From assembly GCA_964511785.1 (NCBI GenBank), contig CAZEIB010000001.1, forward strand, positions 1 to 51,674: a stretch of 51,674 nt of DNA. Direction: 5' to 3'. The notes beneath the pieces were generated by a model. It was not told where the DNA came from, ran no database searches, and worked only from the letters and a program-made list of their open reading frames with translations. The stretch is from an uncultured Oscillospiraceae bacterium. GTDB lineage: Bacteria > Bacillota > Clostridia > Christensenellales > Aristaeellaceae. This document shows, one piece after another, positions 3,642 to 25,066 of the stretch (positions are counted from its first letter, which is position 1; every line of letters begins with the position of its first letter). The position numbers and the translations under genes were made by a program.

Positions 3642-4844
3642 ATGTATTCAGTTCGCAACATCACGCAAGATACCTATTGGGTTGGGGCAAGCGACCGAAG
3701 ACTTGATAAGTTTGAAAACTTGTTTATTTTACCTAATGGGGTTTCTTATAATTCCTACATGATCTTCGATGAAAAAATCGCTTTGATTGACACTGTAGAT
3801 CCTGCTGTGCAAAGCCAATTTTTAACCAATGTAGATTATCTGCTCCAAGGCCGATCTATTGATTATTTGGTGTTAACCCACCTAGAACCCGACCACGGTG
3901 GAGGTATTGCAGAAATTATTCAGCGTCACCCGAATATTCAGTTGGTTGGTACTAAAAAAGCCCATCAATTATTAGAACAATTTTTCCCCCTTCTTCCTAA
4001 GCTCCCCTTTATTGAGGTAGATGAACAATCTGCTTTATCTTTGGGTAAACATACCCTAAAGTTTTATTTTGCCCCTATGGTACACTGGCCGGAAGTAATG
4101 TTTGCTTTGGATGAGGCTACAGGTGCCCTCTTCAGCGCAGATGCCTTTGGCACCTTTGGAGCTTTAGATGGAAATATTTTTGCTGACGAAGTAGACTTTA
4201 AACGGGATTATTTAGATGAAGCCAGAAGGTACTATTCCAACATTGTAGGGAAATACGGTCTTCCCGTTCAAGCAGCCCTTAAAAAATTGCCCTTAGATAA
4301 AATTAAGCTTATTTGTCCTTTACATGGGCCTATCTGGCGGGAAAACCTTGAGTACTTTATTGGTAAATATGATTTGTGGAGCCGTTATCAGCCGGAAGTT
4401 AAAGGAGTTGTTATGGTATATGCCTCAATGTATGGCCATACTGCCAGCATTATGCATTCTTTAGCTGAACGCTTAGCTGCCCGCGGTGTTAGGGATATTC
4501 ATATGTACGATATTTCTAAAACCAATCCTTCCTACTGTGTATCGGAACTTTGGAAGTATAGCAACTTGGTTTTAGCCTCTCCCACTTATAATTTGGGAAT
4601 TCATTTTGCTATGGACGCTTTTTTACACGAAATTTCCGCTTTGAACGCCCAAAATCGTAAAGTTTCCATTATTGGCAATCACTCTTGGGCCAGTGCCGCC
4701 ATGCGATTAATGACAGAAAAAATTTCCGCCATGAAAGATATGGAAATTATTGGAGAAAGCATTGATGTAAAATCCAATACCGGTCATTTATATGTAGATA
4801 AGCTGGATGCCATGGCTGATGCCATTGTGGCTTCTTTGAAATAA
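3642..4844 (+). CDS. flavodiiron protein (FprA-type: metallo-beta-lactamase-fold diiron domain plus flavodoxin-like domain)
   Basis: 400 aa. Diiron ligand motif HLEPDHGG (H-x-E-x-D-H), a C-terminal flavodoxin-like segment (VMVYASMYGHT), and RBS GGAGG 8 nt upstream. Confidence 0.85.
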   Translation: MYSVRNITQDTYWVGASDRRLDKFENLFILPNGVSYNSYMIFDEKIALIDTVDPAVQSQFLTNVDYLLQGRSIDYLVLTHLEPDHGGGIAEIIQRHPNIQLVGTKKAHQLLEQFFPLLPKLPFIEVDEQSALSLGKHTLKFYFAPMVHWPEVMFALDEATGALFSADAFGTFGALDGNIFADEVDFKRDYLDEARRYYSNIVGKYGLPVQAALKKLPLDKIKLICPLHGPIWRENLEYFIGKYDLWSRYQPEVKGVVMVYASMYGHTASIMHSLAERLAARGVRDIHMYDISKTNPSYCVSELWKYSNLVLASPTYNLGIHFAMDAFLHEISALNAQNRKVSIIGNHSWASAAMRLMTEKISAMKDMEIIGESIDVKSNTGHLYVDKLDAMADAIVASLK

Positions 4845-4959: not shown

Positions 4960-5254
4960 ATTATCTCCCTTCTCCAAGAGAGCCCTTATATTCGGGTTCA
5001 TCAAAAGAAAGATTTTAATAAAAAAATCCTCTTTCTCCATTTTTCATCACCTTTTACAAGGTGTTTTTGATGTTTTTCCTAATTTATTTTCAAATTTTCT
5101 TCAAAATCCTCTTCTTTAATTCTCTTTTTTTCATAAAAAAGAAGAGTTTTATTTGAATTTTCCCTATTTTTTGTCACTTTCACTTAAAAATTATAGAGAA
5201 AGCCTCTTCCTTTTTGGTTCTTTTGACCAAAAACAATGAAACCTCAATACTTTC

Positions 5255-5283
5255 TTGTATTTTAATTAACATAAGGCTATAAT
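5255..5283 (+). promoter_or_regulatory. sigma-A type promoter
   Basis: TTGTAT (5255-5260), 17-nt spacer, TATAAT (5278-5283). Confidence 0.65.
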
Positions 5284-5287
5284 GATT

Positions 5288-5531
5288 TTGGTTGTAGTTA
5301 CGGGTCTGTGGTTGAAAGTCCATGCCAGCTGCGGGCAAAAGGATCCACGTAAGTTACTAAAATAGTAATGAGCATAGCGCAGTCTAGAAGTAAGACCGGC
5401 CCATTTTTGGAGAGACGTGAGTGAGGGCGCGATGGCGCAGAGCAATACCATCCAGCCGGCGAGTGTGGGGGAAAAAATCAGGTCAGCCGTACAAACAGCC
5501 AATATATTATTTTTCAGGGGGTTACCTAACC
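5288..5531 (+). ncRNA. candidate structured 5' leader / cis-regulatory RNA of unknown class
   Basis: About 50% G+C by hand count against about 25% in the upstream spacer, with no credible ORF. Long-range closing helix 5288-5303/5487-5502 plus internal hairpins. Lies between the promoter and the ATG at 5532. Confidence 0.5.
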
Positions 5532-5804
5532 ATGTACGAAGACAAAACATTAGGATGCAAAGACTGTGGCGCTGAATTCACCTTCACCGCCGGTGAACAA
5601 GAATTCTATGCTGAAAAAGGCTTCCAAAACGAACCTACCCGCTGCAAAGACTGCCGCATGGCCCGTAAAGCTAACCGTGCAAACGCTCCTAGAGAAATGC
5701 ACGATGCCATCTGTGCTGAATGTGGCGCCGAAACCCAAGTACCCTTTTTGCCTAAGGAAGATCGTCCTGTTTATTGCAGTGATTGTTTTGCCGCTAATCG
5801 GTAA
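5532..5804 (+). CDS. small double zinc-ribbon protein (four CxxC pairs; N-terminal zf-trcl-like ribbon plus CxxC-x17-CxxC ribbon)
   Basis: 90 aa, MYEDKTLGCKDCG...RCKDCR...CAECG-x17-CSDC. The longer 127-aa ORF would begin inside the leader without an RBS. A paralog lies at 20231-20509. Confidence 0.85.
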   Translation: MYEDKTLGCKDCGAEFTFTAGEQEFYAEKGFQNEPTRCKDCRMARKANRANAPREMHDAICAECGAETQVPFLPKEDRPVYCSDCFAANR

Positions 5805-5833
5805 TTCCCATAGCATATAAGTGTAGACTTGCA

Positions 5834-5860
5834 AAAACCGCAGAAGCTTCTGCGGTTTTT
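5834..5860. terminator. bidirectional intrinsic terminator between convergent genes
   Basis: AAAAACCGCAGAAGCTTCTGCGGTTTTT, a perfect hairpin flanked by A-run and T-run. Confidence 0.8.
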
Positions 5861-5880
5861 GTTTTTTTATTTCTTTTTTA

Positions 5881-7545
5881 TTAAGCACTTTGGGCTTCCT
5901 TTAACCATTTCATCAATCCACTTATATCGGTTTTTCCAAAATGAATTTGTTCATCATTAATAACGGTAGCAGGCACACTCATAATATTATGTTTCTTTTG
6001 AAAATCAGGGTAATACTGTACATCGATAATCTCCAAATCCAGCCAAGGAGCCTTTGCTGCTAAAGCCTGCATCCCTTGTACAACCGGCGGGCACATAGGA
6101 CAAGATAAGGTAACCCCAACTTGTACCTTAGTAGGTTTGTTCATTTGATTAAGCCTATCCAATAGTTCTTGGGAATAATTTTGGGTAAGCCCTACAGACT
6201 GTTGCAGAGCAAACAAGAAAGATTGAAATTCATGCCCTGCGGGCAAAATATAGTAGGTTAAAGGGTTTTTAATGCTCGGATCTCCTTTAAAGGTAAAACC
6301 GGGAACTTTTTCAATTCCGATTTTTTTTCCCTCTTCTGCAGAAACTTCTTTAAAAATTACTTTATCACTTAAGCTCCCCACTTCTTCCAAGAAACTTTTC
6401 ATCTCAGAAGAAAAATCGCTTTGGTCAAACACCCCAAGAATTTCAACTTCTTGAGGAAAGCTATTAAAAACTTCTTCTACTTGTTCCGCTATTTCACGGG
6501 GTAAAAATCCTTCCTTTTCTTTTTCCTGTTCACTGGAAGAGGGCGCTTCCTTTTTCGGGGCACTTTCATTTTCTTCCATCACATCAATTTCCCATTTTTT
6601 TCTGGCTCCATGTACATAGCTTTGAGCCTGAGTAGCAGCAATGGCCCCATCCGCAGCAGCCGTTACCAATTGCCTTAAGGTTTTAGGACGAATATCTCCT
6701 GCAGCATAAACTCCCTTTACCGAAGTTTCCATGTGGTCATCAGTTAAAACATAACCTTTTTCGTCTAGTTCTACAACTCCTTTTAGCCATTGGCTTTGAG
6801 GGGTATAACCAACAAAAATGAAAACCCCAAAAGGTTCCCCATTGCCTTTATATTCCCATTCTTCCCCTGTATCGGTATTTTTAAGGCGAAGGGTTTCTCC
6901 CATAGCTTTTCCTTCTAAAGAAACTATTTGGGTATTAAATAAAGGTTCAATTTTAGGGTTGCTTAGTACTTCTTCAAGGGGAAGACCGGTGCAGCGATAC
7001 TCCTCACTACGAATCACTGCATAGACTTTTTTAGCAAAACGGCTTAAATATACCGCCTCTTCTGCCGCTGCAAAGCCTCCGCCAACAACAAATACTTCTT
7101 TGTTCGTAAATAAGGCACCATCGCAAGTAGCGCAATAGCTTATTCCCCTACCGGTAAATTCTTTTTCTCCGGGAAAACCAATGGGGGTAGGCACAGCTCC
7201 TGTGGCTACAATAATGGAAACACCTTCATATACCCCTTGGTTTGTATGTACCTGATGAATTCCTTTTTCTCCTGTAACCAGTTTTTCTACTTGGGCATTG
7301 ACAATTTTAACCCCTACCGCCTCTACCTGATTTACCATGTTTTGGGTCAATTCTTCCCCTGTAATTTTTTCAAATCCCGGGTAGTTAAATATATCGGAAG
7401 TAATACGGATTTGCCCTCCCGGCTGGCCTCCATCTAAAATCAATGTTCTTAATCTTGCTCTTCCTGCATATAAACCAGCGCTCAGTCCTGCTGTTCCGGC
7501 ACCAACAATAATTACATCATATCTATTTTTCATTAGCATCATCAC
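5881..7545 (-). CDS. thioredoxin-reductase-like flavoprotein fused to a C-terminal thioredoxin-fold CxxC domain
   Basis: FAD motif VIIVGAGTAGLSAG and redox centre CATCDG in the N-terminal ~310 aa. A charged linker is followed by a ~200-aa C-terminal domain with SCPMCPP. The true start may be the MKNRYD Met at 7530. Confidence 0.8.
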   Translation of the reverse strand: MMMLMKNRYDVIIVGAGTAGLSAGLYAGRARLRTLILDGGQPGGQIRITSDIFNYPGFEKITGEELTQNMVNQVEAVGVKIVNAQVEKLVTGEKGIHQVHTNQGVYEGVSIIVATGAVPTPIGFPGEKEFTGRGISYCATCDGALFTNKEVFVVGGGFAAAEEAVYLSRFAKKVYAVIRSEEYRCTGLPLEEVLSNPKIEPLFNTQIVSLEGKAMGETLRLKNTDTGEEWEYKGNGEPFGVFIFVGYTPQSQWLKGVVELDEKGYVLTDDHMETSVKGVYAAGDIRPKTLRQLVTAAADGAIAATQAQSYVHGARKKWEIDVMEENESAPKKEAPSSSEQEKEKEGFLPREIAEQVEEVFNSFPQEVEILGVFDQSDFSSEMKSFLEEVGSLSDKVIFKEVSAEEGKKIGIEKVPGFTFKGDPSIKNPLTYYILPAGHEFQSFLFALQQSVGLTQNYSQELLDRLNQMNKPTKVQVGVTLSCPMCPPVVQGMQALAAKAPWLDLEIIDVQYYPDFQKKHNIMSVPATVINDEQIHFGKTDISGLMKWLKEAQSA

Positions 7546-23118: not shown

Positions 23119-23354
23119 TAACCAACGCAATGAACAGGCTTAGTAAACCTTCCTTCTTGATTTAGAGAACTGCCGCTTGGTGTAAGGCAGGCTGGAAGAG
23201 GTTGAATCTCTCCTGGGAGCGGTTGCCCCAACCTTATTTATTAGTAGTAGGCGCAAACGGATTGACTCGTTATCGTCAGCCAAGTGGAGATTTTTTCTCA
23301 ACAAGAGTGGTACCGCGGAAATTTTCCGTCTCTTTTATAGAGACGGTTTTTTTT
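23119..23354 (+). promoter_or_regulatory. T-box riboswitch leader (tRNA-sensing transcription attenuator)
   Basis: Stem I spans 23126-23221 with a K-turn (CGC-AAUGA / GGA-GCG). It carries AGUA (23142-23145), the AGAGA bulge (23164-23168), a distal-loop GGUG (23179-23182) and a specifier loop GAAUCUCU (23204-23211). The T-box core AGAGUGGUACCGCGG is at 23304-23318. The terminator is CCGTCTCT/AGAGACGG plus T8 (23326-23354). Confidence 0.85.
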
Positions 23355-23374: not shown

Positions 23375-25066
23375 ATGGCTATACCCTACCAAGTAAAAGA
23401 ATTAAATCAGTATACTTTGCCCGGTCTTTTAGCGCGTAATGCCAAAGAAATCCCAACAAGAGATGCTATTGTAGCCCCGGAATTTAACATGAGCTGGTCA
23501 TGGAAACAGCTGAATATTGAAACTACCAAAATTGCCCAAGGCTTACTGGCTTTAGGCATTGGTAAAGGCGACCATATTGCCATATGGGCAACCAATGTTC
23601 CCCAATGGTTGCTATTGTTGTTTGCCAGTGCAAAAATCGGCGCTATTTTAGTAACGGTAAACACCAATTATAAACAATTTGAATTGGAATATTTATTAAA
23701 ACAAAGTGATACAAAAATGTTGGTAATGACCAAGGGTGTAGGCAGCAACAACTATATTGACCACATTCAAGGGCTGTTTCCCAGCATTAACCATCACTCT
23801 TGGGAAGATGAAATTGAAAACTCTGATTTTCCTTTTTTAAAACGAATTGTTCTTATTGACCACGATATTCATTCGCCTAAAGGAATGATTGCCTTTCACC
23901 ATCTTTGTTCCTTGGGTGAAAAAATAGACCCTGAAGAGGTTGAAAAAATTTCTGCTTCCTTAAGTACTCATGATCCTGTTAACATGCAATATACTTCCGG
24001 TACAACCGGCTTTCCCAAGGGAGTAATGCTTACCCATTATAATATTGCCAATAACGGCCAGTTTATAGGAGATCGAATGAATTTTACCATGGAGGACAGA
24101 TTGCTTATTGTGGTTCCTTTATTTCATTGTTTTGGCATCGTTCTTGGCGTTATGAGTTGTCTTACCCACGGAAGTGCTATGGTGCTAATGGAAAAATATA
24201 ACCCTCTAAAAGAAATGGAAATGTTGGAAAAAGAAAAATGCACAGCCGTACATGGGGTTCCTACCATGTTTATAGGTATGTTAGAGCACCCTGATTTTAA
24301 AAAATTTGATTTCTCTTCCTTACGCACCGGAATCATGGCCGGTTCTCCTTGCCCTATTAAAACCATGGAAGATGTAACCCAAAAGATGAATTTAAAAGAA
24401 TTAACCATTGTATTTGGCCAAACAGAATCATCCCCGGGAATGACCCAATCCAGCGCAGATGACCCCTTGGCTTTAAGGGTAAGTACTGTAGGGAAGTTAT
24501 TGCCCCATACAGAGGGAAAGGTTATAGACCCCGAAACAGGTCTTGAACAGCCGCCTAATACGCCTGGTGAAATTTTAACCCGAGGCTATTTGGTTATGAA
24601 AGGCTATTATAAAATGGCGGAAGCTACCAAACAAGCCATTGACGAAGATGGCTGGCTACACACAGGGGATATTGGCACCCAAGACAAAGAAGGAAATTTT
24701 CGTATTACAGGCAGGTTAAAGGATATGATTATTCGTGGCGGGGAAAATATTTATCCTAGAGAAATTGAAGAGTTTTTATACACCCACCCTTTAATACAAG
24801 ATGTGCAAGTCATAGGGGTTCCTGACGAAAAGTATGGAGAAGAAGTATTAGCTTACTGTATTTTACGAGAAGGTGCCCAAGCCAACGAAGAGGAAATAAT
24901 TCAGTTTGTTAGAAAAGGTCTTTCTCGTTTTAAGTCTCCAAGATATATATTGTTTACAAAATCTTTTCCCATGACTGCCAGCGGTAAAATACAAAAATAC
25001 GTATTGCGTCAGCAAGCAATTGAAGTATTAGAGTTGCAAGCAGCCGAGCAGGTACAAACGGCTTAA
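23375..25066 (+). CDS. AMP-forming acyl-CoA synthetase/ligase (YngI/ACSF2-like short- or medium-chain type)
   Basis: 563 aa, AMP-binding signature YTSGTTGFPKGV, GEILTRGYLVMKGY, C-terminal SGKIQK, RBS AAGGAGG. Confidence 0.9.
   Translation: MAIPYQVKELNQYTLPGLLARNAKEIPTRDAIVAPEFNMSWSWKQLNIETTKIAQGLLALGIGKGDHIAIWATNVPQWLLLLFASAKIGAILVTVNTNYKQFELEYLLKQSDTKMLVMTKGVGSNNYIDHIQGLFPSINHHSWEDEIENSDFPFLKRIVLIDHDIHSPKGMIAFHHLCSLGEKIDPEEVEKISASLSTHDPVNMQYTSGTTGFPKGVMLTHYNIANNGQFIGDRMNFTMEDRLLIVVPLFHCFGIVLGVMSCLTHGSAMVLMEKYNPLKEMEMLEKEKCTAVHGVPTMFIGMLEHPDFKKFDFSSLRTGIMAGSPCPIKTMEDVTQKMNLKELTIVFGQTESSPGMTQSSADDPLALRVSTVGKLLPHTEGKVIDPETGLEQPPNTPGEILTRGYLVMKGYYKMAEATKQAIDEDGWLHTGDIGTQDKEGNFRITGRLKDMIIRGGENIYPREIEEFLYTHPLIQDVQVIGVPDEKYGEEVLAYCILREGAQANEEEIIQFVRKGLSRFKSPRYILFTKSFPMTASGKIQKYVLRQQAIEVLELQAAEQVQTA

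Follow-up and report, generated by a model that had tools for sequence, protein, structure and literature searches.

The window analysed here, 51,674 nt of DNA from an uncultured Oscillospiraceae bacterium (contig CAZEIB010000001.1 of assembly GCA_964511785.1), contains a short GC-rich stretch between a promoter-like sequence and a small gene for a double zinc-ribbon protein. The question raised by this locus is what RNA that stretch encodes, and whether the RNA governs the gene behind it or acts elsewhere in the cell. The original prediction, made from the sequence alone, described it as a promoter-driven, structured leader of unrecognised class, laid out like the expression platform of a riboswitch.

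Membership of the raiA motif family

When the entire window was scanned with the covariance models of Rfam 15, two matches came back, one of which, at the leader, was to RF03072 (raiA RNA; 5295-5495, forward strand) at 151 bits, well clear of the gathering score of 101.3. The E value was 1e-37 in the whole-window scan and 1e-39 in a separate scan of the sub-region, and the match spans model positions 1-209 of 209 without truncation. The stretch 5288-5502 (+) is a full-length member of the raiA motif, or ModT, family, which was already known. The assertion that the leader matched no known riboswitch or non-coding RNA is contradicted by this result. A confident Rfam match was the outcome that the original prediction itself had named as telling against an unrecognised class, and because the match found is a confident one (151 versus 101.3 bits), that class assignment is refuted. 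Pursuing a 'new riboswitch class' here would be to follow a false lead, as a routine Rfam search annotates the RNA. What had been said of its general nature, a promoter-driven, non-coding and highly structured RNA with a long-range closing helix, is borne out.

The raiA family was first described by Weinberg et al. 2017 (PMC5737381) and had grown to approximately 2,400 distinct sequences from approximately 2,700 species in the survey of Soares et al. 2024 (PMC10861870), while Lence et al. 2024 (PMC11706538) introduced the name ModT for it in C. difficile. The three-dimensional structure is known from cryo-EM (PMC11751092, PMC12286853, PMC12968392), and the genes have been reported to be single copy and to lack an expression platform (PMC10861870).

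As had been described, there is a step in G+C, from 0.22-0.29 across 5000-5299 to 0.48-0.57 across 5300-5499, and a G+C content far above that of the surrounding DNA is a trait that the window RNA shares with the family. A T-box was also noted, its specifier codon not being readable with confidence. A weak match to Proteo-phage-1 scored 22 bits, the gathering score being 42, and was dismissed as chance.

A covarying fold of the P2-less subtype

The fold was assigned from the published cryo-EM descriptions together with the covariance-model alignment to RF03072 (Table 1). The window RNA has the same helices as the family, with P8 represented by a P8-like arm of low posterior probability, both pseudoknot positions, of which PK2 keeps one of its two Watson-Crick pairs, and the conserved single-stranded linker; it has no P2 and therefore belongs to the P2-less subtype. 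It is in this respect like Ca-raiA of C. acetobutylicum, which has the same three-way junction and the same GAA(A) turn (PMC11751092, PMC12968392), the role of the GAA(A) junction being taken from the cryo-EM papers (PMC12968392, PMC11751092). Adding 5294 to the Ca-raiA numbering gives the window coordinate, and this offset stays constant through P1c, the junction and P3, such that G20/A21/A22 correspond to 5314-5316, A28 to 5322, A33 to 5327 and A43-A46 to 5337-5340. The linker CUAGAAGUAA at 5384-5393 agrees with the family form UAGAnGUAAG and corresponds to the conserved linker UUAGACGUAA (PMC12968392). In contrast, the E-loop consensus AGUA/GAA in the P8 arm, a feature of 68% of family members, is not evident in this sub-clade.

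Table 1 Coordinates of the features assigned at the raiA RNA and zinc-ribbon locus
Feature	Position	Strand	Basis or remarks
-35 element TTGTAT	5255-5260	+	Sigma-A type promoter of the RNA; from sequence
-10 element TATAAT	5278-5283	+	17-nt spacer after the -35 element; from sequence
raiA motif (ModT) RNA, P2-less subtype	5288-5502	+	RF03072 match 5295-5495; comparative pairing
5' strands of P1, whole stretch	5288-5313	+	
P1a	5288-5295/5495-5502 and 5299-5303/5487-5491	+	Duplex in 32/32
GU bulge (P1a/P1b)	5304-5305	+	Family feature, present
P1b	5306-5308/5484-5486	+	Invariant or covarying
P1c	5309-5312/5477-5480	+	Invariant or covarying
GAAA of discontinuous GAA(A) tetraloop-like junction, P1c to P3a	5314-5317	+	G and last two A invariant
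P3a	5318-5321/5341-5344	+	Region 5318-5344, 100% of cells paired
A-rich asymmetric internal loop in P3	5322-5323 and 5337-5340	+	AU and AAAA
P3b	5324-5326/5334-5336	+	Region 5318-5344, 100% of cells paired
PK1	5328-5333 (in 7-nt P3b apical loop) with 5378-5383	+	Paired in 100% of cells over six pairs
P4	5345-5348/5465-5468	+	Invariant 32/32
P5 hairpin	5349/5373; 5353-5358/5364-5369	+	Two-sided changes in all five stem pairs
Conserved single-stranded linker CUAGAAGUAA, 3' part of pk-loop	5384-5393	+	Nearly invariant
P6	5396-5400/5455-5459	+	100% paired, three pairs change on both sides
P7, short	5401-5403/5408-5410	+	Covariance-model alignment
P8 arm	~5414-5452; inner hairpin 5427-5430/5435-5438	+	Covariance-model alignment, low posterior probability
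J4-1c linker GGGAAAAA	5469-5476	+	Holds PK2 partners
GGU bulge (P1b/P1c)	5481-5483	+	Family feature, present
A/U-rich spacer	5503-5531	+	T-run 5510-5514; Shine-Dalgarno AGGGGG 5516-5521, 10 nt before ATG
90-aa zinc-ribbon protein gene	5532-5804	+	zf_Tbcl + zf_Tbcl_2; CxxC-x17-CxxC
Intrinsic terminator	5831-5872	+	14-pair stem then T-run

The evidence for this structure is comparative and does not come from single-sequence folding. The minimum free energy of 5288-5502 is not exceptional (z = -1.08), a value that carries little weight for a pseudoknotted RNA, and the corresponding fold recovers P1a, P5, P7 and the inner P8 hairpin while mispairing the core. For the comparison, 80 species-level loci encoding homologs of the 90-aa protein were collected and searched for raiA-like sequences with a profile (nhmmer). 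Such sequences were found at 31 of the 80 loci, always on the same strand and immediately upstream of the zinc-ribbon gene, and when the Rfam model was applied it confirmed all five of the nhmmer positives checked (165-182 bits) and none of 15 negatives. The published architecture was coded as 40 pairs, those of the two pseudoknots among them, on a MAFFT alignment of 32 instances (A2). Standard pairs form in 98.4% of cells, compared with 28-45% when the partners are slid by 1-3 columns. Sixteen of the 40 pairs change on both sides, among them three in PK1, five in P5, three in P6 and two in P3a (GUCC/GGAU in the window, with GCC/GGC in P3b), and the observed covariation score was reached by none of 500 shuffles. 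The region upstream of the 90-aa protein homologs is thus conserved and covarying across the 32 instances, the fold is that of the published architecture, and membership of the family is secure since both the comparative pairing and the covariation hold.

Set against this fold, the helices drawn in the original prediction fared unevenly. The long-range closing helix coincides in both of its segments with P1a, and the hairpin at 5353-5369 is P5. The proposed pairing of GTGG (5308-5311) with CCAC (5345-5348) does not stand, as GUGG lies in P1b/P1c and CCAC pairs with GUGG at 5465-5468 to form P4 in 32 of 32 instances, while GATGG/CCATC (5431-5435/5448-5452) clashes with the inner hairpin of P8. 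That the leader holds no credible open reading frame was correct: the sequence is a conserved RNA, and relatives bear 1-nt and 7-nt indels there.

No other member of the set diverges as far as the window copy (151 bits versus 165-182 for the five relatives scored), which departs from the family in two places. P7 is very short and has 7 nt fewer than its counterpart in the closest relatives. PK2, which in raiA/ModT RNAs has two Watson-Crick pairs, retains U5375-A5473, while the usual G-C is replaced by A5376/A5472 (A.A). The G-C is present in 31 of the 32 instances, the window being the sole exception among the 32. The A.A is common to four distinct closest relatives (L201-L206), and P1c covaries among them (G-C, A-U and G.U), so the A.A is a trait of the lineage and not an error.

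A conserved unit with a zinc-ribbon gene

The -10 element of the promoter is a perfect consensus and the -35 element agrees with TTGACA at three of six positions, which is why the promoter is absent from the list returned by a consensus scan. Its description as near-consensus holds for the presence of both hexamers, the 17-nt spacer and the -10 element, and is too generous for the -35. An exact TATAAT occurs 17-25 nt before the GU bulge in 31 of the 32 related instances, and a hexamer starting with TTG lies 16-18 nt 5' of the -10 element, likewise in 31 of 32, demonstrating that the promoter is conserved. Transcription is predicted to start at approximately 5289-5291. A sigma-A promoter immediately 5' of P1 in a clostridial host is a further likeness to the family, and the ModT literature likewise describes a SigA promoter that is conserved (PMC11706538).

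As had been stated, there is an ATG at 5532, where the 90-aa reading frame begins. The distance from the end of P1 to this ATG is 28 nt in the window and 22-54 nt (median 29.5) over the 32 instances, in which a G-rich Shine-Dalgarno sequence stands 7-12 nt before the ATG; the anchor CAGGUCAG lies 45-61 nt before it in 31 of 32. In 29 of 32, a terminator hairpin with a T-run comes no more than 150 nt after the stop codon; the one in the window is strong and was placed at 5831-5862, or at 5831-5872 as delimited in Table 1. In the window, the consensus scan gave no promoter-like site between the RNA and the reading frame, and a TATATT at 5503-5508 may be a weak internal promoter. The zinc-ribbon gene therefore very probably shares a transcript with the RNA, as had been supposed, judging from the arrangement of the sequence; this is the simplest reading, there being no evident promoter or terminator between the two and the arrangement recurring in 31 of 80 species.

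The genes on either side are far less constant. The window locus is flanked by the gene of a flavodiiron protein (3642-4844) and by an oppositely oriented AhpF homolog (5881-7545), and this synteny is retained in the closest relatives, whose zinc-ribbon proteins are 91-93% identical. The comFC and raiA/hpf flanks, a frequent though non-defining family feature, are absent here. Across the 32 pairs the flanking genes vary widely and include those for ClpC-like, thymidine kinase, AraD-like, TIGR01440 and CshA-like helicase proteins. The conserved unit consists of promoter, RNA, reading frame and terminator, because these are the parts that persist while the flanking genes vary.

The 90-aa protein matches Pfam PF13451 (90 bits) and PF23477 (76 bits) as well as TIGR04272 (CxxC-x17-CxxC), and is predicted from its sequence to consist of two zinc-ribbon (treble-clef) domains. 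It has 7692 homologs at E <= 1e-10, and an exact-sequence look-up of the window protein gave 0 matches. A search of the PDB with the protein profile returned only weak cysteine-rich matches, the best being LIM proteins (E 0.004), and Foldseek against the PDB with a confident AlphaFold2 model (pLDDT 87.4) gave nothing significant (best E 0.12). Small CxxC-x17-CxxC proteins of Methanosarcina mazei bind zinc (PMC12704099). The other 49 of the 80 species carry the gene without a raiA RNA beside it, downstream of sigH in the order ruvAB...sigH - zinc-ribbon - trmK - nif3. Many database entries stretch the zinc-ribbon reading frame back into the RNA, which is an annotation artefact.

To place this context within the family at large, an independent sample of raiA RNAs was drawn from metagenomes by the conserved RNA pattern alone, giving 120 loci, all of them raiA by profile, of which 109 have at least 350 nt of downstream sequence. 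The zinc-ribbon gene starts 41-53 nt after the anchor in 17 of the 109 loci (16%). The commonest downstream gene, serving as a positive control, is that for the hibernation factor hpf (Pfam Ribosomal_S30AE; 62 loci), others being the zinc-ribbon gene (17-18), that for a response regulator (17) and secA (17), and the commonest upstream gene is ComFC-like (50 loci). These figures for hpf and ComFC-like genes match the published contexts of raiA RNAs (raiA/hpf 66%, comFC 74%). Offsets of downstream genes from raiA range from approximately 40 to more than 1300 nt. Approximately 20 of the 62 hpf genes likewise possess a Shine-Dalgarno sequence and begin no more than about 100 nt from the anchor, so close coupling to a reading frame is not unique to the zinc-ribbon context, and the 'hundreds of nucleotides' given in the literature for the distance between RNA and gene is a tendency only. 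No locus of the metagenome sample combines the zinc-ribbon context with that of hpf, and comFC is upstream in two zinc-ribbon loci; the zinc-ribbon gene thus occupies the usual place of hpf, as the contexts are exclusive and comFC is kept in two loci.

The window arrangement differs from that of other described members in several respects. raiA/ModT RNAs usually lie between comFC and raiA/hpf, whereas the window RNA lies 28 nt before a zinc-ribbon reading frame and lacks a terminator of its own. Ca-raiA, so similar in fold, stands alone as a gene beside raiA and comFC, has a terminator of its own and was seen as the short isoform only. A parallel is the long isoform ModT(L) of C. difficile, C. 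perfringens and P. sordellii, which arises from the same promoter as the short form by read-through past P1 to a downstream intrinsic terminator (PMC11706538). However, the ModT(L) extension is approximately 45 nt long and non-coding, whereas that predicted for the window is approximately 370 nt and holds the 90-aa reading frame with its Shine-Dalgarno sequence. The only point here that appears even mildly new is that, in this lineage, a raiA RNA gene seems to be joined with a zinc-ribbon gene in one transcription unit. The association is unmentioned in the main texts of those raiA papers that the analysis covered.

Trans-acting RNA, cis-acting leader or RNA-protein pair

The locus is very likely to encode a P2-less raiA/ModT RNA that has its own sigma-A promoter, acts in trans as its homologs do, and is joined by read-through to the mRNA of the zinc-ribbon gene. 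A compact, pseudoknotted RNA of approximately 215 nt would be made from the promoter at 5255-5283 and, by homology with the C. acetobutylicum and C. difficile members, would most likely be abundant and stable. The literature on the family reports trans complementation, abundance, short and long isoforms and binding by KhpA/KhpB (PMC10861870, PMC11706538, PMC12968392), and it is on this basis that we infer trans action and abundance for the window RNA. Its action would be on the passage from growth into stationary phase and on sporulation, with KhpA/KhpB-type proteins as its probable partners. In this lineage a short mRNA is attached to the RNA gene, in the order promoter, raiA RNA, 28-nt A/U-rich spacer, Shine-Dalgarno sequence, 90-aa reading frame and terminator (5831-5872), and the zinc-ribbon gene would for that reason be expressed by read-through from the promoter of the RNA. 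The mature RNA would then be freed either through processing of its 3' end or through partial termination at the U-run that follows P1, comparable to the short and long ModT isoforms. Both co-transcription and processing we infer from the anatomy of the locus.

The closeness of the two genes is also what would be expected of a cis-acting leader. The RNA would in that case sense a ligand or condition, and P1 would compete with a helix at the start codon to control the zinc-ribbon gene. Like translational riboswitches, the RNA is a 5' element closed by P1 shortly before a Shine-Dalgarno sequence and an AUG on the same strand; the 22-54 nt spacer of the 32 instances contains neither an evident terminator nor a promoter, a third or so of the hpf genes in the metagenome sample (the approximately 20 of 62 above) are as closely placed, and Rfam gives RF03072 the type 'Cis-reg; riboswitch'. 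This label is out of step with the later literature on trans action, and the layout of an expression platform is not supported by comparison. The alternative helix that had been proposed, between UGGUUG (5289-5294) and UAACCA (5527-5532), can be drawn, but it is at chance level in the window (z = -0.3 versus shuffles; -2.3 to +1.8 over the 32 instances) and is not conserved, being shortened in the closest relatives because U5527 is A there. When the 5' strand of P1a is matched with the AUG region in each of the 32 instances, the best duplex averages -7.4 kcal/mol, compared with -6.5 for shuffled targets, whereas P1a itself is far stabler (-15.7 kcal/mol in the window, mean -16.9 over 32 instances) and is an integral, conserved part of the raiA fold (PMC12968392). 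Partition-function folds gave the Shine-Dalgarno sequence no conserved, sequestering partner, the predicted ones being scattered, and a terminator hairpin was found in the spacer of 0 of the 32 instances. P1 followed by a U-run was considered as a terminator and rejected as not conserved, a T-run of at least 4 following P1 in only 12 of 32. Neither an alternative helix nor a terminator coupled to the aptamer is therefore conserved over the 32 instances. Riboswitches are also expected to precede functionally related genes, and no such link across lineages was found in the raiA sample, where the downstream genes are unrelated and lie at very different distances. Added to this, raiA RNAs showed no small-molecule binding in vitro (Weinberg 2017, PMC5737381), the window RNA has, unlike a riboswitch, no known ligand, and trans action has been shown for family members by complementation in two species, C. 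acetobutylicum and C. difficile (PMC10861870, PMC11706538). Control of the zinc-ribbon gene in cis by a riboswitch is, on balance, improbable. Still more doubtful, to a degree that makes it scarcely credible, is the idea that the window RNA is a decaying paralogue that now merely forms the structured 5' end of an mRNA. It has the lowest covariance-model score of those scored, the A.A in PK2 and the short P7 in its favour. Against it, the RNA is full length and 50 bits above the gathering score, the other core helices and the conserved single-stranded nucleotides are intact, the A.A and the promoter are common to four distinct relatives among which P1c covaries, and the literature describes the family as single copy (PMC10861870).

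A further account is compatible with the trans-acting RNA preferred here and extends it to the protein: the zinc-ribbon protein could be a dedicated partner of raiA, by binding or through the same pathway, with the amounts of the two coupled by co-transcription. The pair stays adjacent while its surroundings vary, 31 of 80 species and 16% of the independent raiA sample show it, the zinc-ribbon gene, never found together with hpf and with comFC kept upstream in two loci, takes the position usual for hpf, a gene for a CshA-like DEAD-box RNA helicase adjoins the pair in 7 of 32 loci, and relatives of the domain bind zinc (PMC12704099). However, 49 of the 80 species have the protein without adjacent raiA, in the sigH/trmK/nif3 context, a zinc-ribbon gene is missing from the vicinity of most raiA RNAs, and pulldowns gave KhpA/KhpB and no zinc-ribbon protein (PMC12968392). 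Neither sequence nor fold comparison gave any sign of nucleic-acid binding, and adjacency may simply reflect the use of a strong constitutive promoter. A dedicated partnership is thus rather unlikely and, because of the 49 species without adjacent raiA, should be treated only as a lead. The same doubt attaches to its more specific form, in which RNA and zinc-ribbon gene would be one unit in a sizeable uncultured gut/rumen clade of Clostridia because they cooperate, the protein either binding the RNA or replacing the hibernation factor gene; we consider this unlikely too. Published synteny analyses have yielded no strong candidate protein partner for raiA/ModT, and if the partnership were true, the zinc-ribbon protein would be the first genetically linked protein partner for the family. 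For the named relatives, the NCBI taxonomy gives only 'Eubacteriales incertae sedis'. For work on the raiA/ModT family, the recurrent unit of promoter, RNA, reading frame and terminator provides a concrete lead.

raiA RNA and the reading of downstream genes

In about 20 of the 62 metagenomic raiA-hpf loci, which were sampled by conserved RNA pattern, the hibernation factor gene starts 48–106 nt past the CAGGUCAG motif of the RNA and is preceded by a Shine-Dalgarno sequence (L100, L114, L126, L128, L139, L141, L163, L185 and others). This close spacing differs from the literature generalisation of 'hundreds of nucleotides', and in these lineages the raiA RNA may be co-transcribed with hpf too.

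Among the database entries homologous to the 90-aa zinc-ribbon protein, many have a recorded length of 114–146 aa (P0019, P0025, P0028, P0039, P0043, P0048 and others), likely because the open frame extends upstream into the raiA RNA, as it does in the window, where a GTG-start ORF of 127 aa overlaps the 3' portion of the RNA. The start-codon miscall is probably systematic wherever raiA RNA precedes the zinc-ribbon gene.

Variation within the RNA

The pseudoknot PK2 contains a G-C pair in 31 of 32 raiA instances. In the window (5376/5472) this pair is replaced by A opposite A, a variant shared with its closest relatives (L201–L206) in which both partners are altered without a restored Watson-Crick pair. 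The short helix P7 of the window is 7 nt shorter than in these relatives. One raiA instance (L019) carries an insertion of ~75 nt in the P7 region and despite this scores 172 bits across the full Rfam model.

Genes flanking the RNA and the zinc-ribbon gene

Two oxidative-stress-type genes, encoding a flavodiiron protein and an AhpF homolog, bracket the RNA and zinc-ribbon unit in the window. All six closest relatives have the AhpF homolog after the unit; an upstream flavodiiron gene was confirmed in L203 only, as the contigs of the other relatives stop there or lack annotation. A CshA-like DEAD-box RNA helicase gene adjoins the unit in 7 of 32 loci (L001, L003, L004, L009, L010, L022 and L023).

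The zinc-ribbon gene occurs without upstream raiA RNA in 49 of 80 species, mostly Oscillospiraceae-like (loci L014, L016, L020, L021 and others among L001–L080). There it usually lies downstream of the gene for the sporulation sigma factor SigH, with RuvA/RuvB-like genes farther upstream of the latter. Downstream of the zinc-ribbon gene lie putative genes for TrmK- and Nif3-like proteins, assigned by visual inspection of the sequence.

Features of the window and of two zinc-ribbon homolog loci
Feature	Location	Strand	Remark
Flavodiiron protein gene	window 3642-4844	+	metallo-beta-lactamase + flavodoxin
GTG-start ORF, 127 aa	window 5421-5804	+	
AhpF-homolog gene	window 5881-7545	-	thioredoxin-reductase fusion
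T-box leader	window 23121-23336	+	full-length; 123.9 bits, gathering score 93
ORF, 563 aa	window 23375-25066	+	best match fatty-acid/acyl-CoA ligase (AMP-binding) family
CshA-like DEAD-box RNA helicase gene	L001:5350-6528	-	example locus
P7-region insertion	L019:4798-4874		

A T-box leader elsewhere in the window

The T-box leader lies 38 nt upstream of the 563-aa ORF, which best matches the ligase family rather than an aminoacyl-tRNA synthetase, a transporter or a gene for amino-acid biosynthesis. A ligase-family ORF of this kind is an unusual T-box target.
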